Under the pieces are notes generated by a model, which searched no databases, was not told the origin of the DNA, and saw nothing but the letters and a program-made list of their open reading frames with translations. Below, one piece after another: positions 909 to 53,633 of a stretch of DNA of 64,000 bases. The stretch is from NCBI GenBank assembly GCA_000004985.1, contig GG738862.1; one strand, given 5' to 3'. This stretch comes from Naegleria gruberi (taxonomy: Eukaryota). The position numbers and the translations under genes were made by a program. How positions within the stretch are numbered: position 1 is the stretch's first letter; every line of letters begins with the position of its first letter.

Positions 909-2324
909 ATGAAAAGACGAGAGCCAGAGGAAACCTCATCTTGCTCCGATATCAATCCAAGCAAGAAAACAAAGCAAACAACCAATTCTCAAGATTCTCA
1001 ATGTAAAAGTTTTGATGATGGTATTGTGGCGACAATTTTAAAATACTTAGATTCTATGAATGTTATCAAGAAATGTTTTTTACTCTCTAAACAGTGGTAT
1101 CGGTTGGCCATCACGGAATATAAATTTGCATTGGAATTTGATAAGGAAATGTGGGGCAAATTTGTGGAACTAATGTTTTCTGACCATGAAAACGTCGACC
1201 AACAAACATTTCTCTGTACATATCGAAAGAATATTATTGGATTGGATTTTGGAAACACCAGTCTTTCTTATCGTGATGCATGCCTTATTGCAAAATTTGA
1301 ATCATTAGAAGAATTAATTGGAGAAGTTGGGGATGAAATGGAAGCCCTTGTCGATTATTTGCCCAATTTAAAATCACTAGATGTTGGTTTGGTGCAGGAA
1401 ATTTGTTATGAAAATGTGGAATATATAAGTGAATTACAAAATTTGACCACTTTTTCTATTAGATACTCAAATATCGGAAGAAAACACCTTCAAATAATTG
1501 GTGAAATGAGTCAACTTACAGATCTTAATATATCTGGAAACCCAATTAATTCTTTACTACCAATAAGACCGCTCACTAGAATTACATCTCTATCAGCTGC
1601 AGACTGTAGTTTTTTAGGTGATGATGGAATATATCCTATTGTGAATTTTAAAGGGCTACAAAAACTCAATTTATCAAGCAATGGCATTACATGGGAAGGT
1701 TGCATGTTTATTAGTGAAAAATTTCCAAATTTAAGTCATCTATCCTTGAATGAAACCAGAATTTGTGACGGTGCTATTAAGAGATTGTCTAAGATGAAAC
1801 AGTTAACATATCTAGACGTTGGAAATAATGCAAAAATTACTATGGAAGGGATTAAATTAATTTCTAACAATTTAACCAACTTGACACATTTAAATATCAG
1901 CTCAAACAATGTGACTGATGAAGGTTTGATGATGGCTTGTGATCTCCCTAAATTACAAGAGCTCTTTGTAGGCCATAACCAAATTACTGATAGTGGAATT
2001 AACGAATTTTCTGAGAAAATTGGTAACAAATTGAAAATTCTTTCACTAAGTAGAAACAATATTACCTCACTTTGTACTCAATATTTATGTACCAAATTGA
2101 CAAACCTTAAGAAGCTATATTTGGCTGGTGTATCAATCACAGATGAAGATGTCAAGTTGATTTGTCAATGTATGAAATTATTGATATATTTAGATGTGTC
2201 TTGGAATAATGTTACAGATAAGTCATTGGAGTATGTTATTGCATCGGAGAGCCTTAGAGAAGTTGATGTAAATGGAAATGAACAAATCCATGATACAAAC
2301 TGGTCTAAAATTGGAAAACTTTGA
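909..2324 (+). CDS. F-box/LRR-repeat protein (RNI-like leucine-rich repeats), 471 aa
   Basis: Single ORF. The N-terminal F-box-like motif is GIVATILKYLDSMNVIKKCFLLSKQWYRLA. About 12 LxxLxLxxN-type repeats follow (LNLSSNGITWEG..., LTHLNISSNNVTDEGL...). Confidence 0.8.
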   Translation: MKRREPEETSSCSDINPSKKTKQTTNSQDSQCKSFDDGIVATILKYLDSMNVIKKCFLLSKQWYRLAITEYKFALEFDKEMWGKFVELMFSDHENVDQQTFLCTYRKNIIGLDFGNTSLSYRDACLIAKFESLEELIGEVGDEMEALVDYLPNLKSLDVGLVQEICYENVEYISELQNLTTFSIRYSNIGRKHLQIIGEMSQLTDLNISGNPINSLLPIRPLTRITSLSAADCSFLGDDGIYPIVNFKGLQKLNLSSNGITWEGCMFISEKFPNLSHLSLNETRICDGAIKRLSKMKQLTYLDVGNNAKITMEGIKLISNNLTNLTHLNISSNNVTDEGLMMACDLPKLQELFVGHNQITDSGINEFSEKIGNKLKILSLSRNNITSLCTQYLCTKLTNLKKLYLAGVSITDEDVKLICQCMKLLIYLDVSWNNVTDKSLEYVIASESLREVDVNGNEQIHDTNWSKIGKL

Positions 2325-5094: not shown

Positions 5095-5243
5095 GCCAAG
5101 AAAAAATGTCAAGGATGTCTGATTATGAAATGCTGACTACATTCTTCAATCTGAAATTGTATCAGATCCAAACCTTAGAAAATTATACCAATTTGTATCA
5201 TGTATTAATGTATAAAATTGGAAAACTTTGATCAGTAATTTAT
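5095..5243 (+). repeat. Decayed partial duplicate of the 3' end of the F-box/LRR gene at 909..2324, including a 31-bp perfect copy
   Basis: The 31 bp at 5213..5243 (taaaattggaaaactttgatcagtaatttat) are identical to 2306..2336, which spans the stop codon of the F-box/LRR gene. The ~100 bp upstream align loosely with the gene's last ~100 bp (ccttagagaagttgat.. versus ccttagaaaattat..). No ORF remains. Confidence 0.5.
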
Positions 5244-5299
5244 TTTTACTGACCTACTCGTAAAATTATTTTTGACCTAAATATTAGTTTTTACTAGAT

Positions 5300-6436
5300 T
5301 TATCTTCTTTCATTTCTAGAGAGTCTTCTGGCAGATCTTCTTGGAGCTCTTCTGTATCTTCTATTTCTCTTATTTGGGAATCTTCTACCGAATCTTTGTC
5401 TTCTAGCTTGTCTTCTGGATGGTCTTCTACCGAATCTTCTTTGTCTTCTAGCTGGTCTTTGTCTTCTGGCTGGTCTTCTAGATTGTCTTCTTGGTCTTCT
5501 GGCTGGTCTTTGTCTTCTGACTGGAGCTCTTCTTCTTGGGGCAACTCTTCTTCTTGGAGCTCTTCTTGGGGCTCTTCTAACAGATCTTCTCTTTGGAGCA
5601 GCACACTTTCTCTTTACAACTCTCTTCTTTGGGGCAGCACACTTTCTGACCTTTCTCTTTGGGGCAGCACACTTTCTCTTTGGAGCTCTTCTCTTTGGAG
5701 CAGCACACTTTCTGACCTTTCTCTTGACAATTCTCTTCTTTGGAGCACATCTTCTTCTTCTGACGATCTTTCTCTTTGGAGCTCTTCTTCTCTTTGGAGC
5801 AGCACATCTTCTTCTTCTGACGATCTTTCTCTTTGGAGCAGCACACTTTCTCTTAACAACTCTCTTCTTTGGAGCAGCACACTTTCTCTTGTTGTTTCTT
5901 CTGATGGCCTTGGTGACCTTCTTTGATTTCTTTGATGAAGCAGACTTCTTAGCAGCAGCTTTAATCTTTCTGGCAAGAGCTCTGATATTCTTTCTGTAAA
6001 TCTTTCTCAAGATAGCTCTGATCAATCTGACACCAGTAGCAAAATTAGTAGATGTCTTTAAATCAGCAATGTAAGTCTTTAAATCTTCAGCCTTTCCGTC
6101 CTTCTTCAATTGAGCAAGATGCTTTGAAACAGCAACCATCTTATTCATAATAATAGTAGCTTCTTCCAAATTGAATTTATCTTGTTCAGAGTTTCTTTTA
6201 ATCAATCCAAGTTCCTTCAATTGCTTCAACATGCCTCTCAAAAATTGAACCTTTGACTTTTGGTTCTTTCCTTCAACAGCGTTGAGTGTAGCATTAACAA
6301 CTTGCACAATATTTTGAATAGTCTTTGGTTGAGTAGCCAAGGCTGGAGTTGTTGTTGGTGTTGCGGTTTGTGCAAAGACGCTAACAGCAATACTCAACAA
6401 GGCAATTAAAAAGGCGATCAAGAGTGTCTTGTTCAT
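5300..6436 (-). CDS. Secreted (signal-peptide) protein with a helical N-domain and a long protamine-like Arg/Lys-rich C-terminal half built from Cys-containing tandem repeats (KRKCAAPKKRVV...), 378 aa
   Basis: Single minus-strand ORF. The N-terminus MNKTLLIAFLIALLSIAVSVFAQTATPTT looks like a signal peptide. There are about 13 repeats of (K/R)3-5-C-AAPK(R/K), followed by an RRxxRR-rich tail. Codon usage is AAG/AGA/CCA/GCT/ATC/TTC/TAC/GTC, the optimal-codon style of highly expressed genes and unlike the neighbouring genes. The repeats show up at DNA level as ctttggagcagcacactttctc units. Confidence 0.7.
   Translation of the reverse strand: MNKTLLIAFLIALLSIAVSVFAQTATPTTTPALATQPKTIQNIVQVVNATLNAVEGKNQKSKVQFLRGMLKQLKELGLIKRNSEQDKFNLEEATIIMNKMVAVSKHLAQLKKDGKAEDLKTYIADLKTSTNFATGVRLIRAILRKIYRKNIRALARKIKAAAKKSASSKKSKKVTKAIRRNNKRKCAAPKKRVVKRKCAAPKRKIVRRRRCAAPKRRRAPKRKIVRRRRCAPKKRIVKRKVRKCAAPKRRAPKRKCAAPKRKVRKCAAPKKRVVKRKCAAPKRRSVRRAPRRAPRRRVAPRRRAPVRRQRPARRPRRQSRRPARRQRPARRQRRFGRRPSRRQARRQRFGRRFPNKRNRRYRRAPRRSARRLSRNERR
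5560..5900 (-). repeat. Imperfect tandem DNA repeat (~24-42 bp units) encoding the K/R-Cys repeats of the 5300..6436 gene
   Basis: The unit tctctttggagcagcacactttct recurs at least 10 times. This creates long spurious ORFs on the opposite strand and in the other frames (5396..5926+, 5577..5846-, 5614..5976-, 5724..5999+). Confidence 0.8.
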
Positions 6437-15299: not shown

Positions 15300-15649
15300 A
15301 GAAAAATGATGATGAACAAGAACTCTTAAGTGTCTGATTGGTCAATACACTCGTTATTCTAAGAGAGAGAGGAATGAAGGATTTGTATTGTTCTTTGTTG
15401 AAAATCCTTTCGATAGCGATGGTTAAATGTTGTGGTGTTCTTTTGGAGTTTTAAATACCAGACCTTGTCGTTGTTGGCTGAAAACTTTATGAAAATCGCA
15501 CCAAAGCAGATGTAGTTGCACTATCGAGTAAAAAAGTTTAAGAATAGCGAAGAGGAGCATCGCAACATGCTTTTCATGGCGCAGTCGAAATCCGTATTGA
15601 GAAAAATGCTCCGAACAAACTAAAAAACATTACGAGCTGTACTCATCAA

Positions 15650-16201
15650 ATGAAGCAAGAAAGTGTACCAGCTGCCTATTATTTTTTGTTTGGTATTTCA
15701 CAGAATGACCATGATGATCAAATAGGCTCAACAATGGTTTCAGATTATTGTATTCCGATATGTCACGTATTTAAATTTATTGATTTTAAAATTCTATTGA
15801 ATAGTATTGGCCTTGTTTGTAAGAGGTGGTATTTATTAGCTAATTTTCACAACGGGCTTTGGCTACAATATTGTCATGAATACTTTCCTCGTTCACTCAA
15901 TGTTAGCGCAGATTTTGACCAATTTAATGATTGCCTCTCACTTTATTACGAAGTTTGCAACCAAGTCCAAAAACAATCCAAACTACAGCCACATGTTGTA
16001 CAATTAGGGTATGAAAAAATCCAAAAGAAGATCTCCTTATTGGAGACATTGGGCTTTAATTCAAAACAATGTCTTGCCATGTTGTGCTATTATCGATTCT
16101 ATTTTGCAAAGCGTTTTGTATTGGAGAGGAGAAGAGCAAAACAAGAGGTATGTACCTTAATATTCATTGCATCTTACATCAAATTAGGTAAACTACAGTA
16201 A
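15650..16201 (+). CDS. F-box-like domain protein (183 aa), possibly the 5' exon of a longer gene
   Basis: The F-box-like motif is CHVFKFIDFKILLNSIGLVCKRWYLLANFHNGLW. A GTATGT donor lies at 16148, but I could not find an in-frame acceptor into the next ORF. Confidence 0.5.
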   Translation: MKQESVPAAYYFLFGISQNDHDDQIGSTMVSDYCIPICHVFKFIDFKILLNSIGLVCKRWYLLANFHNGLWLQYCHEYFPRSLNVSADFDQFNDCLSLYYEVCNQVQKQSKLQPHVVQLGYEKIQKKISLLETLGFNSKQCLAMLCYYRFYFAKRFVLERRRAKQEVCTLIFIASYIKLGKLQ

Positions 16202-20518: not shown

Positions 20519-22330
20519 ATGGCACAACACCTATCCCCTGAAGTGCTTTTTCACATTTTCACAAATTTTTCATCACCCGACCAATATTTAAATGGTTTAA
20601 TGCTCGTTTGTCGTGATTGGTACGAAGTCACCAATTATGAAATGTTCTGGTTGGCAACTCTTAAGAATTTAATGAAACAACAAATACACGATTGTAAAAA
20701 CAATGAAAATTTTGAAACCCTGATTGATACCTCTCGTACCAATATGGTTGTTAAACAATCGGATATTGTGAAGGAGAGAAAGAATTATTTATCAAGTATT
20801 GAAAAGAGAGAAAAAATTCTTGTCATTGATTTGAAACCATTCACAAAGAGGAGAGAAACCAATGATGATATTTATGGAAATTCGTATAAAACCAAGAGTG
20901 TTCAATTCATTAGGGAAAGGAGAAGGAGATTAGTGGTTTTGGAGTTGGCTCAAATTGCTTCCAAATTTGAAAATGATATTATTGACCCTCACATGTTCCA
21001 AAATGATTGGGAAAAGATTATCAATCAGATTGAGAATAGCAAGTATTATGATAAGAAGTTTATTGCAAATTTGGGAGTTTTCAATTCTTCAACAACAATT
21101 TTTCACATATTTCTCAAACAATTTCAGGTGCATTTCCATCGTGGAGGTGATTTTGATTTTTTAGATAGAGTTGTTTCATTCTTTTTATATGATTGTGAAC
21201 TTTCTGTTTCTTCATACATGGAACATATTGTAAAAACTAGTGGTTTCAATTCGTTCTTAAAAGTAAGAGAGAACAAACCAACAATATTTGAGAGATTCAA
21301 GAATGAATTTTATTTTACTGGAAAATCAGGCGTACCTGCACACTTTTTGAGTTGCGTTATTAGCAGCGCCGACCTGAAAGACGAAATGCATTTTGAATTT
21401 ATCAGAAAATGCATTGAACTTTTCAAAACTAAGAAATTGCTAAAATTCAAAGAGAATATGGTAGAGCCATACATTACTGAATATATGCAAGCAATAATTC
21501 CAAATTGGATGACAATGGAACTCTATTTGAATGATATGAACATGCTAGAGTGTAAAGGGGTCAATAGTTATCTATTTATTCATGAACTTTGCCAAAAGGC
21601 ATGGTATCTTTCACAGGAAAACAGCAATTCTATAGTTGCAGAAAACTTGAAGAGAGCCAACAAAGAATTAGGCCTCAAATTAGATATTCCTATTCCACGT
21701 TCGGTAACTAATAGATCGAACATTGAAATTCTAAAGGTTTTAGTTGAGAATGGTGCTGATATCAATTCTCCACCACCCACATTAAGTGATTCCACACAAA
21801 GTTACCACATTGGAGTCCCTCTTGCAAGAATTATTTATAATTGTTACACTTCATCGAGAACTGAAGAAATTTTATACATGATAGAGGAAGGAGCAACTCT
21901 ACCACCAATGGATACCCCAATGCCAACCCCTTTCTACGAATCATACACATATGCTGATATTTTTGATTATTATTTCGATACTGAGGAGAACAATTTTTTG
22001 CCAACTTTGAAATTACTTGTGGAAAAGTTTGGAGCTAGATTTACAGGAGCTGTTCCAGTTATTGAAAATGTGAGATACGCTAGTAACGCAATAACTTTTT
22101 CTGGATTATGTGAACTATTGCGTTATTTGAAACAAGTCACAACAATGAATAAGGAAATAATTTGCACACCTCTGACTTACATTTATTGTGATTGGGGACG
22201 ATCTATTGTAAAGGATGATTTGGATAAGAAGGAACTATTCAGAGAATTTTTGGAAAATGAAATGGATATTCACCTAGTTGAAGAAATAATTGAGGAACAC
22301 GTCGAGGTCGAGGTTACACAAGATGAATAA
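20519..22330 (+). CDS. F-box-like protein with an ankyrin-like segment, 603 aa
   Basis: The N-terminus LSPEVLFHIFTNFSSPDQYLNGLMLVCRDWYEVTNYEMFW is F-box-like. The ILKVLVENGADINSPP segment is ankyrin-like. Confidence 0.65.
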   Translation: MAQHLSPEVLFHIFTNFSSPDQYLNGLMLVCRDWYEVTNYEMFWLATLKNLMKQQIHDCKNNENFETLIDTSRTNMVVKQSDIVKERKNYLSSIEKREKILVIDLKPFTKRRETNDDIYGNSYKTKSVQFIRERRRRLVVLELAQIASKFENDIIDPHMFQNDWEKIINQIENSKYYDKKFIANLGVFNSSTTIFHIFLKQFQVHFHRGGDFDFLDRVVSFFLYDCELSVSSYMEHIVKTSGFNSFLKVRENKPTIFERFKNEFYFTGKSGVPAHFLSCVISSADLKDEMHFEFIRKCIELFKTKKLLKFKENMVEPYITEYMQAIIPNWMTMELYLNDMNMLECKGVNSYLFIHELCQKAWYLSQENSNSIVAENLKRANKELGLKLDIPIPRSVTNRSNIEILKVLVENGADINSPPPTLSDSTQSYHIGVPLARIIYNCYTSSRTEEILYMIEEGATLPPMDTPMPTPFYESYTYADIFDYYFDTEENNFLPTLKLLVEKFGARFTGAVPVIENVRYASNAITFSGLCELLRYLKQVTTMNKEIICTPLTYIYCDWGRSIVKDDLDKKELFREFLENEMDIHLVEEIIEEHVEVEVTQDE

Positions 22331-22852
22331 ACTATTCCTTAATTTCAAAAAGTAATGGTATATATTAAAAAATTAAACTAGACTAATTGCTAGTGACAAA
22401 CCATAAAAAGCGAAAACAAGGATAAATTAATAGTCCTGGTTCAAACGCTTAATTTGAGGGGTTACACTCGAAAAGTGTCGCCAATTATTCATAATATTTG
22501 GCAACTCATTCAAAATTCTATCAAAAAAAGCATCAGAAAGTAACAATTCTTGAATCTCCGAAAGATTAACAACAGAGAAAAACAACCAAGTCAAACCTCC
22601 ATTATATTGCCTCATTCCCAGAAATTGAAAGTTTGAAAAATGTAATACCAAATTGTAATTCAATTTATCATTGGAATTCCAACTGAAGAAGGCAGAAATT
22701 CTTACACCACTCCATCCAATCAATGACTCACCTTCTTATAACAAAGTTCACCATATGGTATTTGACTGGATTGAGGTTCTATTGATCACGATAGAGCATT
22801 AAACGATTAAGGCGGAAACAACCGTTTGATTATTTTTTAAGATATTAACGTA

Positions 22853-22925
22853 GCCCGTCTAGCTCAGTCGGTAGAGCGCAAGGCTCTTAACCTTGTGGTC
22901 GTGGGTTCGACCCCCACGGTGGGCG
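22853..22925 (+). tRNA. tRNA-Lys (anticodon CTT), 73 nt
   Basis: The sequence gcccgtc-ta-gctcagtcggtagagc-g-caagg-CTCTTAA-ccttg-tggtc-gtgggttcgacccccac-ggtgggc-g closely resembles canonical eukaryotic tRNA-Lys(CUU). An identical copy lies on the minus strand at 52967..53039. Confidence 0.9.
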
Positions 22926-23007
22926 TTTCATATTTTAAATATTTTAAATTCTCATTTATTTCTTTCTTGCTCCAATATTGTTTTTGTAATAAGAAATCTA
23001 AAGATTG

Positions 23008-23304
23008 GAACTTGTCAAAAAAATTTAAACGTTTATTAATCGTATGAACCCGACGGGTTCGTCTTGATGATATTACGAATATTAAATAATAAATTCTTTC
23101 TTGTTGGGATTGCTTTGTTCATTTCTTGTAACTCTGTGGACACAAATACTTGGCTTGAACACCCTATGCTGGAACCCCGGGTAGTATAGGGTACGGTGAC
23201 TTAACCCGACGTAAGTATTGCGGCAACACACTGTGGTCTCAGGGTCAACAGTGTAGTTACTGGGTGGTACGACATTTTTTTTGAGACGAACTTGTCAAAA
23301 AAAT
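23008..23304. mobile_element. 263-bp GC-rich island bounded by 17-bp perfect direct repeats (gaacttgtcaaaaaaat), 83 bp downstream of tRNA-Lys. It is a candidate truncated tRNA-gene-targeted retroelement (TRE3/RED-like) or a Pol III ncRNA gene.
   Basis: The direct repeats are at 23008..23024 and 23288..23304. The interior is far more GC-rich than the flanks (ggaaccccgggtagtatagggtacggtgacttaacccgacg...). It contains the hairpin gaacccgacgggttc, a UGAUGA box and an 8-T run at its right end (..ggtacgacattttttttg). Confidence 0.3.
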
Positions 23305-23872
23305 GCCTCCACCAACTCTCTGCACTCAATGCTCATCACCAAGCAATCGGCTCATCAAAAGAAAAGTTTGTTTCTCGTGTTCAAAAGGTGTCGAGGAAGC
23401 TATTTGTTGTAAATATTGCCAAGTAACAGAAAAATCCGGTTTTACTTGTACACATTGTAAGAGGCTGAAATGTTTTAGTTTACATTTTGGATTTTATTGT
23501 TTTTCTTGTAGAGGAAATTGTTGTTCTGATTGCCAGAGAAAATTTGATCCATATTGCAGAAGCTGTCATTCACCAGTTTGCTTGGATTATTTGGAAAAGG
23601 AAAAGAAATGTAGTCAACCCTATTTCAAAAGAGTTTATTGTTTAAAATTGAAACATTTCTTTACACAAAAATCTCCAAATTGGGTTGCCAGTAAGAAGGA
23701 AAAATCGAATTGGAATGTATATGAACTTGTGTATGGGCACGATGATCATGCAAACTGTATGGTCAATAAGGTGGAGCACAAATTGGAATGTGTTTCATGT
23801 TGGAAAATTAAGAATAACTTGTGGAATGTGTGTGGAAAGATAACTTGGTGTGATCTTGTCATTATTTTTTAA
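23303..23872 (+). CDS. Cys-rich (multiple CxxC pairs; B-box or zinc-ribbon-like) hypothetical protein, 189 aa
   Basis: ATG-initiated ORF. The ATG sits directly after the right-hand 17-bp repeat. The protein has at least seven CxxC/CxxxC pairs (CTQC, CFSC, CCKYC, CTHC, CFSC, CCSDC, CRSC). Confidence 0.5.
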   Translation: MPPPTLCTQCSSPSNRLIKRKVCFSCSKGVEEAICCKYCQVTEKSGFTCTHCKRLKCFSLHFGFYCFSCRGNCCSDCQRKFDPYCRSCHSPVCLDYLEKEKKCSQPYFKRVYCLKLKHFFTQKSPNWVASKKEKSNWNVYELVYGHDDHANCMVNKVEHKLECVSCWKIKNNLWNVCGKITWCDLVIIF

Positions 23873-24051
23873 ATCATTCGAATATAATTAATTGGAAATT
23901 TACAATGAAAATATTGTAATCATCAGCACTGTGTAGCTCTGTTTAGAAAATTATGCAATCAGGAAAAGACTTGTTTCCATTTTAGACGTTTCTTACTCTT
24001 TCGAATACATTGTAAACAACTTTTTTCACAAGCCTTTGAATTAGATTCATA

Positions 24052-24987
24052 ATGGAAGAGCCTCGATTTTTGAATATTGATTGCATGTTCGGATTGCTCT
24101 CTCCTCATCAACAATACTCACTGCTGAATAATTTGATGATTAATTTGCATCAGGATAAACTCTCTGTGCAATTTCCAACAGAGGTTGTGCAAGATCGTAT
24201 TCTTACATTCTCAGAGGATAGAGTTGACTTTTATGTTTGTATGATGGTAATGAGAGGCTTGTTAAAGGAACTGGTTCACAGGGAAATCCTTATTAACAAT
24301 CAAAAGAGAACAGTGAAACAAGATGAATCATGGATTTGCTTTGCTCAAAAGCTTTGTTGTTTGGAGTATGATGACGGTGTGAAGGAAGGAGAAGTTTCTT
24401 ATGAAACCAGAAAGCTTGTTGCTGAATTGTACAATACCTTCCTTTGGAGACAAGTTCCTATTGATAAGAGTAAGCTCTCAAAAACTCTTCATAAGAATTG
24501 TAACTTTTATCATTGGTCTGCAATGATTGACTATGTGATGAGTAATGTTTTATTTAAGCATGTCACTCCAGGATTAGTAATTTTAGAGCATTGCTCCTTT
24601 GATGATAAGGGGGAATATCATAAGCATCAAGGTAAGTGTTATATTACTACTCATTGTTTTATTTAAATTAAAATAGTTGAATGGATAAAGAACAGAAAAG
24701 TTCGAAAAGATCTATACACCAAAATTGTTGCCACAACTTATGAAATTAATTCCTTTATTAAATGAAGACACAGATGCAATAGATTGCATTGCAAAGAAGG
24801 TTAATCATCTCCCACATCCAATCAAGTTCAGATATCAAGAACCAAAATGTGTTGTGTGTGGTAAAAATCTCAATTCAAATGTTCTCAATGTGCTGTTGAA
24901 AAATACTGCTCTCGTAATTGCCAAAAATCACATTGGAATCAACACAAATCCATTTGTAAACAATCCAAAGAAATAATTATAAATTAG
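24052..24987 (+). CDS. MYND-type zinc-finger protein. Two exons (24052..24640, 24696..24987). The C-terminal MYND finger is disrupted by an apparent 1-nt deletion in an A-run near 24877.
   Basis: A GTAAGT donor at 24641 and an acag acceptor ending at 24695 (55-nt intron) keep the frame. In the last exon, frame A gives PKCVVCGKNLNS, and after a -1 shift frame B gives KCSQCAVEKYCSRNCQKSHWNQHKSIC. Restoring one A yields a canonical MYND finger CxxC-x7-CxxC-x5-YCSxxCQxxHWxxHKxxC. Confidence 0.55.
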
Positions 24988-26840
24988 CGTACACTCTTAA
25001 TGGCCAATTTCACGATACTCATACCATCATGATCTAGTTCATCTAATTTGAAATAATTCAGTGCTCTACCATTCCTCTTAACACATTGATCAACAAAGTT
25101 GAAATCATTTCTAAATAAGCTATTTCTGGCTAGAAAATCGCTCAAATGATAAATAATTCGATTGCAAGCCAATATCACAAATTCTGATTTCTTCTTGTAA
25201 ACATCATCAAGATACACAAAGCATTCTCCATTTACCTCGAGACATCTTCTGATGAAATCTTCATCTTGCTTTAGATTCTTATTCAATTTTTCAAAAACTC
25301 TACAATTTTGTTGGATGGCAACCAATAAAAACTCTTTATCCTGCCTCAACTCTTGTCCCATATAATCAAAACAGGTTGCAAATTTGAAAAGCATTGGTAA
25401 CACTATTTCCTTTTTAGATTTGATTTCGGCACTGGCCAAATAGAGAGCCCTAGCAGAATGCTCTCCTGCCAATTTAACAACATCTATATCCCTCCATAAA
25501 CTTGGGTGCACAAACTCTGTTGCTTGCCCGTTTTTCTTTAAAGCCAAGAGGACTATTTCCTTGTCCTTTTGGAACTCTGAAGCAGCATATCTAAGTGCAT
25601 AACCATTTTTTGAAACTGCTTTCAATACTATTTGCCTGTCTTTCCTCAATGCAACTGAGCCAAACCTCAAATGTATACCATCTGCCTCAATAGCCTTTTC
25701 AATAATTTGTCTATCATTTGAAAATATTTTTTGGAAATAATTAATTGAATATCCATTTTGAGAAACAGCAAAAAGAGCTATCTCTCTATCTTTCAGTAGT
25801 GTTGGGTCTGCATATTGGATGGACATTCCACTTTGTTTAACAGCTTCCAATACTAACTCTCTGTCTAACTTTAAATTATTATCTGCATGTTTCAATAATT
25901 TACCATCGTGTCGAACAACTTTCATCATTATATCTCTATTTGATCTGAATGAATCATTGAAAAACCCAATAGCACCAGGAAATTCAAGCAAAAGATCCGT
26001 TGTTTTTAAATCCTCTCTTATACTGTTAGTAGCATATATGTTTTGACTAAGGGCTGCTCTTATTGTATCTAGATCATTTGACAGAGATTCATCCACATAT
26101 CCCAGTAGCAATCCATTGATATTTAAAGCTTCCAATACTAACTCCTTGTTTGACCTCAAAGATTGGTGTGCAAGTTTGAAAATTGAGGGATGTATCCTAG
26201 TACATTCCATCATTATTTCAGAATCCTCATTAATACTCTGTTTGAGCATTTTGCTCTCATAGCCATTAATATAATTGTCTATTTCACTAGGACATTTTCT
26301 TATTTGTGTGTAGAGATTATTCTTGAAATCTTCTGTAAACTCTGTCCTATTTCTAATTAGCTTCATATCCCAGTCTTTGAACTCTTGAGTTGCTGTTAAT
26401 AATGAGTTCACAGTCCAACTAACATATTGCCTTGATGATGGATTCTGTACAAATGCTTTAAAAACCACATCAAAGTCAGCTGAGAAATGAGGGGCGCTTT
26501 GCAATAACATTCCATCCAAGCCAACAGCATCCAAGGTAGCCTCTTTATCTTTCTGCAAAATTTCATATTTTGCATAAATCTTTGGATTCACCCTCACTGC
26601 TCTTCTCATAAAATTCAAATCATCTCTCTTCTCTTTAGGAATGTATGGTTTCTCCATATTTCTAAATGATTCAAGTAATAATTCCTCTTCATCTCTCAAC
26701 AATAAACTCAATTGAGGAATTGTCGGAATGAAATGTAATGCCAAACTGTTGATTTGAATTCTAGAATACAAAGCAGACAATTTTTCAGATCGGAACGATT
26801 GATCGAGTACAATAATCACACAATCATCATTTCTATTCAT
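24984..26840 (-). CDS. DUF4116-type repeat protein, 618 aa, paralog of 9376..10953
   Basis: Single ORF with about 8 tandem ~30-aa repeats (NRDIMMKVVRHDGKLLKHADNNLKLD / RELVLEAVKQSGMSIQYADPTLLKD / REIALFAVSQNGYSINYF...). Its 3' end abuts or overlaps the stop of the MYND gene on the opposite strand. Confidence 0.7.
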   Translation of the reverse strand: MNRNDDCVIIVLDQSFRSEKLSALYSRIQINSLALHFIPTIPQLSLLLRDEEELLLESFRNMEKPYIPKEKRDDLNFMRRAVRVNPKIYAKYEILQKDKEATLDAVGLDGMLLQSAPHFSADFDVVFKAFVQNPSSRQYVSWTVNSLLTATQEFKDWDMKLIRNRTEFTEDFKNNLYTQIRKCPSEIDNYINGYESKMLKQSINEDSEIMMECTRIHPSIFKLAHQSLRSNKELVLEALNINGLLLGYVDESLSNDLDTIRAALSQNIYATNSIREDLKTTDLLLEFPGAIGFFNDSFRSNRDIMMKVVRHDGKLLKHADNNLKLDRELVLEAVKQSGMSIQYADPTLLKDREIALFAVSQNGYSINYFQKIFSNDRQIIEKAIEADGIHLRFGSVALRKDRQIVLKAVSKNGYALRYAASEFQKDKEIVLLALKKNGQATEFVHPSLWRDIDVVKLAGEHSARALYLASAEIKSKKEIVLPMLFKFATCFDYMGQELRQDKEFLLVAIQQNCRVFEKLNKNLKQDEDFIRRCLEVNGECFVYLDDVYKKKSEFVILACNRIIYHLSDFLARNSLFRNDFNFVDQCVKRNGRALNYFKLDELDHDGMSIVKLAIKSVR

Positions 26841-39259: not shown

Positions 39260-39996
<737 letters not shown>

Positions 39997-52319: not shown

Positions 52320-52966
52320 TTTAATTGTGGCAGTTTTAAACTAATGTAACTGAAAGGGAGAATATTTGATAGGTAGATAACAATACTTTTATTCTTCTAT
52401 ATGTGATGATGAATAACAAGTGATCGTTATCTTTTTTGAAAGTGCGGAGTGTTTTTCAGACGCTGTTGTGTGATGATACCTGATGTTCAAGTATTTTTTA
52501 GTTCAGTAAAAATTGTGTTGTTTGATGATGAATTGGTGATGTGTTTGTTCCAATAGAATTGGGAGGTTTACAAAAAATTGCTATTTTTAAATATTGGCGC
52601 GATAATTCAACCAGAAATGGTGCAAAATCGAAAATACACAAAACAAACAAGCGATTTATCAAAATAATGATGATAAGAAGAAATGTTTTTGAAAAGGGAG
52701 AAAGCAAGATGTATTTTTCTCAGATTTATATGATTTGTAGTCATCATTATTTAATTTTCATTGTAATAATGTTCCTAATCAAAATGTTTTAACAGTTTTA
52801 ATGGATAACTTGTTGTTTGTTCATGGTGTACCATTACTCCGAGTGGTTTTGTTTTTGAAAAAACTTTCTGTGCATTAATTAGAAAAGAAAGTGCAAACTT
52901 TTCAGAATGAAAGAAAAAATCAACTAAACAAATGGACAAGAAAACATGATAATTTAAAATATGAAA

Positions 52967-53039
52967 CGCCCACCGTGGGGGTCGAACCCACGACCACAAG
53001 GTTAAGAGCCTTGCGCTCTACCGACTGAGCTAGACGGGC
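52967..53039 (-). tRNA. tRNA-Lys (anticodon CTT), 73 nt, identical to 22853..22925 but in inverted orientation
   Basis: It is the exact reverse complement of the plus-strand tRNA-Lys gene (73/73). Confidence 0.9.
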
Positions 53040-53633
53040 TACATTTGTTCTTATTAAAATATCTAAATACTTGATTCAACCTTACATAATAGGAGTAAAA
53101 ATATCCAACATTAATAAATGTGTTGAGTTTTGATTAATAGTTTCGAAACCAGTGACAAAGATACTGTAATATTGGAAGTTATTAATGCTTAACAGGACAG
53201 TAACAGCACTTAATGTTTTTTTTTGTTATAATGGAATAACTAATACGTTAATAATTATAGTGACATGGCTTCTTTAGAACTGCTATATCCACAAAACAGC
53301 AATAAGAATGTTTTACTGTAAAACTATACAATTCAATAAATTGTAACAATTTGTTAAAGTAACACAATAAGGGTATATCTTTATTATTTGACATTTAAAT
53401 AGAGGTTCTCATGAATAGTGCGACATTTACTAATCGAGAGTTGTGGAACAATTTGTTGCAAGTTTACCACAATGTGAAAGAGATGAAGCACAACAAGAAA
53501 TTGTCCACTATTCTGAAAAGATTAGTTCCTCTCCATATTTTCACAAGATTATTAACTTGGACTTGTCGAGCTCATTAGTTTCTAATCAATTGAATATTGT
53601 TAGCAAGATTTTAACCAATTTGATTAATTTACT

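Follow-up and report, generated by a model that had tools for sequence, protein, structure and literature searches.

A perfect 17-bp direct repeat around a 263-bp segment downstream of a Naegleria gruberi tRNA-Lys gene: a candidate target-site-duplicating insertion at the start of an unannotated CxxC-rich gene

How did a 263-bp segment of unusual composition come to lie between two identical 17-nt sequences, a short way downstream of a tRNA gene and directly upstream of a start codon? This question is raised by a locus within a 64-kb stretch of the Naegleria gruberi genome (hereafter the window), of which the region 22500-23900 was read directly. In the original prediction, the segment was interpreted either as the remnant of a dictyostelid retroelement of the TRE3 type, historically known as RED repeats, or as a small RNA gene transcribed by RNA polymerase III (Pol III). 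A tRNA-Lys(CTT) gene is located on the + strand at 22853-22925 (identified by ARAGORN; Rfam tRNA score of 66.4 bits). On its downstream side, about 82-83 nt past the gene, the left copy of the 17-mer GAACTTGTCAAAAAAAT, representing a putative target-site duplication, begins and extends over 23008-23024. The right copy occupies 23288-23304, and both copies are exact matches in direct orientation enclosing the 263 bp of the putative insert (23025-23287). An exact search thus recovered the predicted repeat pair at these positions, and likewise the predicted distance of 83 bp from the tRNA gene was reproduced, the ARAGORN gene end being 22925 and the first base of the left copy 23008. The right copy runs into the start codon of an open reading frame (ORF) of 189 codons encoding a CxxC-rich protein (23303-23872, + strand), as had also been noted: the last two bases of the repeat are at the same time the first two of the ATG at 23303, and its A-run provides the start context usual for N. 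gruberi genes.

Allowing up to two mismatches, a third copy of GAACTTGTCAAAAAAAT was not found in the 64-kb window, and no similarity extends past the 17 nt of either copy. For the whole window, a census was compiled of direct repeats that match exactly over 17 nt or more and are spaced by 30-600 nt. The pair described here is the sole non-coding close direct repeat of this length, all other repeats in the census being located within repetitive coding sequence. Moreover, when the window was simulated 60 times with a first-order Markov model, such repeats never occurred. Since the other repeats of the census are coding and the simulations did not yield any, the 17-bp pair is not a chance occurrence.

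The enclosed segment had been described as a 263-bp GC-rich island. This description applies to its right part, the core at 23150-23274, which has a GC content of 52% and is a real outlier, but not to the left half (23025-23149), whose 32% GC equals the window average, nor to the insert as a whole (41%). The flank on the tRNA side is lower still, with 18% GC. Among all 120-nt windows of the 64 kb, the interval 23152-23271 ranks second in GC content (99.97th percentile), and the GC-rich core outranks all three tRNA genes of the window in this respect. Furthermore, the ratio of observed to expected CpG dinucleotides is 1.10 for the insert (1.88 for its left half), compared with 0.47 for the window and 0.93 for the tRNA, and with 12 CpGs the insert ranks among the uppermost 0.55% of 263-nt windows. 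A high CpG content does not by itself mark foreign DNA here, since a divergent promoter region at 15300-15650 is CpG-rich as well. Within the left half, the stem-forming palindrome GAACCCGACGGGTTC (hairpin GAACCC-GAC-GGGTTC, 23046-23060) and the hexamer TGATGA (23065-23070) were observed, both as predicted. Three upstream ATGs on the + strand, all out of frame with the CxxC-rich ORF, start at 23044, 23067 and, just past the left half, 23166. The core contains two hairpins, ACCCTATGCT/AGTATAGGGT and ACACTGT/ACAGTGT, and on the + strand the motif GTAAGTAT (23211-23218), a perfect match to the local 5' splice-site consensus. To its right, the T8 run noted in the prediction (23275-23282) is followed by GAG up to 23285; this element could be read as a 3' splice site, a promoter T-tract or a Pol III terminator.

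Elements of the TRE3 and RED type are specific to dictyostelids, and the identity of the host therefore had to be considered. The F-box ORF located just upstream of the locus (20519-22330, 603 aa) is 100% identical to NAEGRDRAFT_48307 of N. gruberi, and its next relatives are proteins of N. gruberi and N. lovaniensis; the N. lovaniensis locus examined represents a non-syntenic paralog. In addition, the GC content of the window (32%), its A-rich start contexts and its short introns beginning with GTAAGT fit the N. gruberi genome. The premise of a dictyostelid host is contradicted by the identity of the F-box ORF. Because the organism is N. gruberi, assignment to TRE3 or RED loses its taxonomic basis; moreover, an A-rich tail is absent and no protein or Pfam match was obtained in any frame. 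A modified version of this idea, in which the segment represents a 5'-truncated remnant of a tRNA-targeting non-LTR retrotransposon acting in Naegleria as a functional analogue of TRE3, is regarded as quite improbable. Both the distance of 83 nt from the upstream tRNA gene and the 17-bp duplication would be accounted for by such a remnant. The N. gruberi genome comprises roughly 41 Mb. Since about 924 tRNA genes are distributed over it (PMC2888827), a chance landing within 100 nt of one of them would be infrequent, although for an intergenic feature such a distance is nothing exceptional. Besides the non-dictyostelid host, the absence from the insert of both an oligo(A) tail and a coding remnant argues against such an element, as do the other two tRNA genes of the window, which lack a comparable element downstream, and the finding that the insert has no second copy in the 64 kb. 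A tRNA-targeted element in Naegleria was not described in the literature searched.

In order to trace a donor, the insert was compared with several sequence collections. Further copies were found neither in the 64-kb window nor in four related loci (26.8 kb) by means of sensitive blastn searches. Plasmid and phage collections did not provide a match, and the same applies to two scans of bacterial and archaeal genomes and three scans of viral contigs. A metagenome scan with 21-mers returned two contigs, both representing one and the same GC-rich bacterial coding region with an identity of 23 nt only, and this match is due to chance. Peptides deduced from all six frames of the insert yielded neither a Pfam match (E≤1) nor a match among 5.8 billion protein clusters (E≤10). 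Since all six frames lack Pfam and protein matches, the insert is judged from its sequence to be non-coding. A fragment of a protein gene was dismissed on the same grounds, its codon scores likewise not being coding-like. The 3' end of a gene on the − strand, suggested by an open frame of 70 codons followed by a stop and AATAAA, was also discarded, as Pfam and protein matches were missing and codon scores were not coding-like.

An insertion accompanied by a 17-bp target-site duplication, as put forward originally, represents the most economical account of the locus: the repeat is non-random, and removal of one unit restores an ordinary spacer. Deletion of one unit leaves 97 nt between the tRNA gene and the ATG with the usual aaaaaaATG context (reconstructed empty site GATTGGAACTTGTCAAAAAAATGCCTCC; longer reconstruction GATTGGAACTTGTCAAAAAAATGCCTCCACC). 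This restored spacer resembles the 106-nt spacer between the tRNA-Asn gene and the F-box gene 2.5 kb upstream, the filled spacer between tRNA-Lys and the ATG measuring 377 nt. Furthermore, the perfect 17-mer brackets exactly the compositional outlier, and in composition neither half of the insert resembles the sequence around it. Based on these observations, we infer that a non-coding fragment was inserted once, with target-site duplication, where the tRNA gene and its neighbor had been separated by an ordinary spacer of 97 nt, and that the fragment now constitutes a leader or proximal promoter. This proposal is a tentative one, held with a confidence slightly short of even.

According to the proposed course of events, either target-primed synthesis or a cut staggered by about 17 nt would have opened the short stretch that separated tRNA-Lys from the ATG of the CxxC-rich gene, and a 263-bp non-coding fragment would have entered there. 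GAACTTGTCAAAAAAAT would then have been copied onto both sides of the fragment by fill-in. Non-LTR retroposition generates duplications of 7-20 bp, a range that includes 17 bp, and a duplication of this length is far beyond those made by cut-and-paste DNA transposons. An A-rich tail was not detected beside either repeat copy in either orientation, and terminal inverted repeats or LTR-type ends were not observed on the insert (left end TTAAACGTTT..., right end ...ACATTTTTTTTGAGAC). Since A-rich tail, inverted termini and LTR-type ends are all missing, no classical element class is positively indicated. As to the donor, the best guess is a short retroposon, non-autonomous or 5'-truncated, or else a captured piece of cDNA or DNA, in either case devoid of a poly(A) tail. 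As the ATG and the A-rich sequence preceding it would be regenerated by the duplication, the CxxC-rich gene would have been left intact, and the insert may now act as its proximal promoter or leader. Transcripts initiated within or upstream of the insert could shed part of it by splicing from GTAAGTAT at 23211. One feature at the right end speaks against an insertion there: the T-run followed by an A-run ahead of the ATG resembles native gene starts of N. gruberi, and the right end of the segment could thus be native promoter instead of foreign DNA. A second, identical tRNA-Lys gene with similar flanks is present in the window (52967-53039, − strand). Its locus was considered as a paralogous empty site and rejected, since similarity is lost about 40 nt past the tRNA.

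The gene downstream of the segment also required evaluation. In a word-indexed search of the 5.8 billion protein clusters, the 189-codon ORF did not match any entry, not even itself, and this missing self-match suggests that the annotated proteome of N. gruberi does not include it. At -0.02 per codon, its codon score is weak compared with the 0.12-0.35 of long ORFs. By means of an exhaustive HMMER scan, one homolog was identified in a JGI metagenome (P0007; library-wide E=1.2e-10). In the pairwise comparison, this protein and the ORF align over about 200 residues with E=2e-22, and nearly all cysteines are kept. Since the cysteine pattern is conserved in an independent homolog, the comparison identifies the CxxC-rich ORF as a real, unannotated gene. 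The contig carrying the homolog has an F-box gene upstream of it and neither a tRNA gene nor a comparable island. A search of structural profiles derived from the PDB gave nothing below E=0.2 for the Cys-rich protein, and a single-sequence AlphaFold model reached a pLDDT of 42 and was set aside as unusable.

It had further been suggested that the insertion reshaped the 5' end of this gene. This is conceivable for the leader only: neither the ORF nor its ATG with the A-rich context is disrupted, and the homolog aligns exclusively within the ORF and not to the insert. Two ways in which the insert could contribute coding sequence were considered and rejected. A decayed N-terminus of the CxxC-rich gene is not apparent, as a tblastn search with the homolog matched nothing in the insert. 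An upstream coding exon could be drawn from the ATG at 23067, with the signal-peptide-like beginning MILRILNNKFFLVGIALFISC..., connected in frame via GTAGTA at 23182 to the AG at 23285; it was rejected because the homolog, which lacks a signal peptide, shows no alignment outside the ORF, and because the codon score of the exon is poor. Given the three out-of-frame upstream ATGs in the insert, productive transcription probably begins close to the right end of the insert, or else splicing removes part of the insert from the transcript.

The splice signals just mentioned form the basis of a different explanation, according to which the segment is the native upstream region of the CxxC-rich gene, containing a 5'-UTR intron, and was never inserted. 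The intron would extend from GTAAGTAT at 23211 to an AG at 23251, 23256 or 23285, and the 17-mer pair would have arisen by local slippage or conversion, or would represent a repeated regulatory or leader motif. Here too, the three out-of-frame ATGs would have to be avoided, either by a transcription start further downstream or by splicing. The donor motif speaks in favor of this explanation: GTAAGTAT equals the local 5' splice-site consensus, and three or all of its four other sites in the window are located at evident exon ends. Among the 25 GTAAGT sites of the window, about half end a long open frame with the next long frame following 40-70 nt on. The candidate acceptors would define introns of 41 nt (CAG), 46 nt (TAG) and 75 nt (T8-GAG), to be compared with a range of 40-67 nt for real introns; the last of these acceptors lies two bases short of the right end of the insert. 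Moreover, a T-run and an A-run ahead of the ATG are common among genes of this region, with T-runs 10-40 nt upstream, and the CpG richness of the segment has its counterpart in a promoter region elsewhere in the window. However, a native origin does not account for a perfect 17-bp repeat that exactly brackets a compositional outlier. The body of the putative leader intron has a GC content of 45%, whereas eight real introns of the window range from 12 to 33%, and GAG, the acceptor nearest to the ATG, is used by none of these eight, all of which end in CAG, AAG or TAG. A leader intron is thus possible but would be atypical in its GC content and, for the nearest acceptor, in an ending absent from the real examples. 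In addition, the 377-nt spacer is far longer than the tRNA-to-gene spacers of 97-106 nt otherwise seen, and a recurrent leader motif is not clearly supported by GAACTTGTCA, for which 15 matches were counted compared with 7.6 expected, a number reached by 3 of 100 shuffles. On balance, a native leader is considered unlikely, although it ranks first among the rival explanations. A related interpretation as a spliced-leader-like RNA on the + strand, with the donor placed in a hairpin, followed by a stem-loop and A-U8-G, was abandoned: we know of no report of trans-splicing in Naegleria, the sequence occurs in one copy and its 3' stem is weak.

Alternatively, the segment might harbor a novel small non-coding RNA gene of about 125-165 nt, transcribed by Pol III from the + strand and ending at T8, with the AT-rich left half, including its hairpin and a TATA-like stretch, as upstream promoter. 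GC-rich islands in AT-rich genomes often represent RNA genes, and the core, ranking second in the window and above the tRNAs, is such an island. CpG is undepleted in the insert, as it is in tRNA, the T8 at the 3' edge of the segment exceeds the four Ts required for a terminator, and TATTAAATAATAAA is positioned about 60 nt upstream of the core. Nevertheless, Rfam 15 returned no family at E≤10, neither for 2.5 kb of the locus nor for 281 nt alone; the covariance-model check for SRP, MRP, RNase P and snoRNA families, which had been recommended for this purpose, was thus negative, and at the Rfam gathering score the whole window contains three tRNAs only. Relative to dinucleotide shuffles, folding z-scores amount to +0.60 and +0.57 for the two strands of the core and -0.28 and -0.58 for the whole insert, compared with -1.95 and -2.29 for the tRNA controls, and the hairpin of the left half (23046-23060) is unremarkable (z=-1.3). 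Convincing A or B boxes were not recognized on reading the insert, ARAGORN at a threshold of 80% did not report a tRNA-like fold in it, and its alignments to tRNA-Lys and tRNA-Asn remained at the level of shuffled sequences. UGAUGA lacks a CUGA partner at snoRNA distance, and the metagenome scan contributed only the chance match in a bacterial gene. Genes of this window commonly have a T-run 10-40 nt ahead of their ATG, so that T8 does not have to act as a terminator; moreover, a small RNA gene would leave the 17-bp repeat unexplained. The originally suggested Pol III gene, founded on T8 and GC richness and facing the lack of an Rfam family, promoter boxes, tRNA likeness and a folding signal, is accordingly judged improbable; if it did exist, it would be a member of no described family. 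A tRNA-derived SINE or tRNA pseudogene was rejected based on the low-threshold ARAGORN run and the shuffled alignments to both tRNAs. An HDV-like ribozyme or 5' hallmark of the Pr77 type on the − strand was likewise discarded, since the pairings GUCUCA/UGAGAC and ACACUGU/ACAGUGU, as judged by eye, leave no room for P3 or P4. On the same strand, a divergent, minimal U1 snRNA gene beginning with 5'-AUACUUAC at 23218-23211 can be imagined. This 8-mer is the complement of GTAAGTAT and pairs over exactly 8 nt with the 5' splice-site consensus GUAAGUAU, and an Sm-like AUUUGUG follows about 60 nt downstream. Kinetoplastid relatives possess minimal U1 snRNAs (PMC11613528), and a screen published in 2008 included a U1 search in N. 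gruberi, the outcome for this species not being stated (PMC2396436); unfiltered whole-genome Infernal searches served there as the step for RNAs missed by BLAST or FASTA (PMC2396436). However, the Rfam U1 model gave no match at E≤10, the first hairpin lacks a loop of the U1-70K type (AUCACGAAG or CAUCAAGAAA; motifs as given in PMC11613528), and folding of the candidate is not exceptional (z=+0.4 (+0.44)). AUACUUAC is located in the middle of the GC-rich block and not at its 5' edge. Diplonemid U1 adopts a conventional cloverleaf structure (PMC11613528), which suggests that the ancestral discoban U1 was conventional, too. As the same 8-mer is explained equally well as a splice site on the + strand, a U1 gene at this position is hardly credible.

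The main practical value of the analysis consists in flagging an unannotated CxxC-rich gene and in correcting the taxonomic premise under which the locus had been interpreted. Provided that the insert proves to be mobile in origin, it would join the few insertions documented for N. gruberi, whose genome is poor in repeats. The locus would further offer a clue to the way in which a very compact genome tolerates inserts at gene starts, since the duplication regenerates the start context and the insert carries a splice donor. A more far-reaching speculation would make the locus the first recognized member of a family not yet described from Naegleria, consisting of short retroposons without a tail or of 'introner-like' inserts, which settle beside tRNA genes and gene starts, create duplications of about 17 bp and bring along their own consensus 5' splice site, so that they are tolerated in leaders; targeting of tRNA genes would then have arisen independently outside Dictyostelia and fungi. 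We consider this a long shot.

With respect to known systems, the locus shares features with several without coinciding with any of them. Small Pol III-transcribed RNA genes such as U6, 7SL, RNase P/MRP, vault and Y RNA genes are comparable in that a GC-rich block ends in T8, but the insert differs from them by lacking a covariance-model match, visible internal promoter boxes and a thermodynamic structure signal. C/D snoRNAs share the upstream UGAUGA hexamer, but a D box is not present at the proper distance. Concerning the dictyostelid TRE3 elements, the site downstream of a tRNA gene, within a zone of roughly 100 bp (criterion of about 40-150 bp), and a flanking target-site duplication of LINE-like length are alike. 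Unlike TRE3, the insert resides in a heterolobosean host and is devoid of oligo(A), an ORF and a recognizable element module; further copies of it were not seen, and the other two tRNA genes of the window are free of the element.

In Daphnia, insertions at staggered breaks create new introns flanked by short direct repeats. Such intron gains, as well as 'introner' elements, resemble the locus described here in that a direct repeat surrounds a non-coding insert equipped with splice signals (GTAAGTAT as well as the T-run and AG). They differ in that the insert is located in a leader and not in coding sequence, and its 5' splice site is found in the middle of the insert instead of at the edge, where the acceptor is the disfavoured GAG. 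Furthermore, a copy family is not known and splicing at this locus is only predicted. Short non-autonomous retroposons, such as the SINE-like elements of trypanosomatids (NARTc/RIME), and tailless retropseudogenes derived from small RNAs offer another comparison. The insert deviates from NARTc/RIME-type retroposons in having no poly(A), no tRNA-derived or other recognisable head and no match to an HDV-like ribozyme in Rfam. It corresponds to them in its length of about 260 bp, its non-coding nature, the 17-bp duplication and the arrangement of one GC-richer and one AT-rich end. Viewed alongside these systems, the locus looks like a single, probably neutral insertion and would represent a new case of a known kind of event.

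Over the window as a whole, CpG dinucleotides were found to be strongly depleted, with an observed/expected ratio of 0.47. Exceptions to this depletion were the tRNA genes, the 263-bp insert located between the two 17-bp direct repeats (23025-23287) and, among the divergent intergenic (promoter) regions, at least the one at 15300-15650. Regarding base composition, the highest GC content of the window (55%) was observed at 39270-39990 within the coding sequence of a minus-strand gene, which is split by an intron of approximately 217 nt (GTAAGTGT ... ATATAG). At this position, high GC content accompanies a gene that is likely to be highly expressed, and not an RNA gene.

Within the metagenome scan, the GC-rich core of the insert (23150-23274) shared an exact 23-nt identity with a GC-rich bacterial coding region represented in two sister metagenomes (contigs L003, 2513-2535, and L004, 1986-2008). 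Since the flanking sequences are unrelated, this match was judged to be due to chance.

The CxxC-rich ORF downstream of the insert (23303-23872, plus strand; 189 codons) yielded no match in the protein-database search, and one clear homolog was detected on an environmental contig (L002, 1782-2597). The ORF and its homolog constitute a small gene family that is apparently unannotated. An F-box gene is also present on this contig, upstream of the homolog. The single-sequence AlphaFold model of the CxxC-rich protein reached a pLDDT of only 42 and gives no usable fold.

Two identical tRNA-Lys(CTT) genes are located 30 kb apart in opposite orientation, and similarity between the copies extends approximately 45 nt upstream and 40 nt downstream (22808-22940 and 52952-53084 on opposite strands; 86% over 133 nt). 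These common flanks suggest that tRNA genes in this tRNA-rich genome undergo duplication as units of approximately 130 nt. Furthermore, a 37-nt sequence, GT(C/A)TAAAATTGGAAAACTTTGATCAGTAATTTAT(G/T)TT, occurs twice in the window with 95% identity (2303-2339 and 5210-5246), each copy being located just beyond the 3' end of a different ORF (909-2324, plus strand, and 5300-6436, minus strand, respectively). It could be a 3' signal common to both ORFs or a small repeat.

Among the neighbouring genes, the one at 24052-24976 is represented by a 204-codon ORF terminating at a consensus GTAAGTGT site (24632). Because the frame reopens 59 nt further on, this gene almost certainly harbours a short intron and encodes a product longer than the listed ORF. 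At 24984-26840 (minus strand), DUF4116 repeats make up almost the full length of a 618-aa protein, with 12 matched stretches (E=5.5e-94). This protein and the adjacent large F-box family mark the region as a neighbourhood of lineage-expanded repeat proteins.
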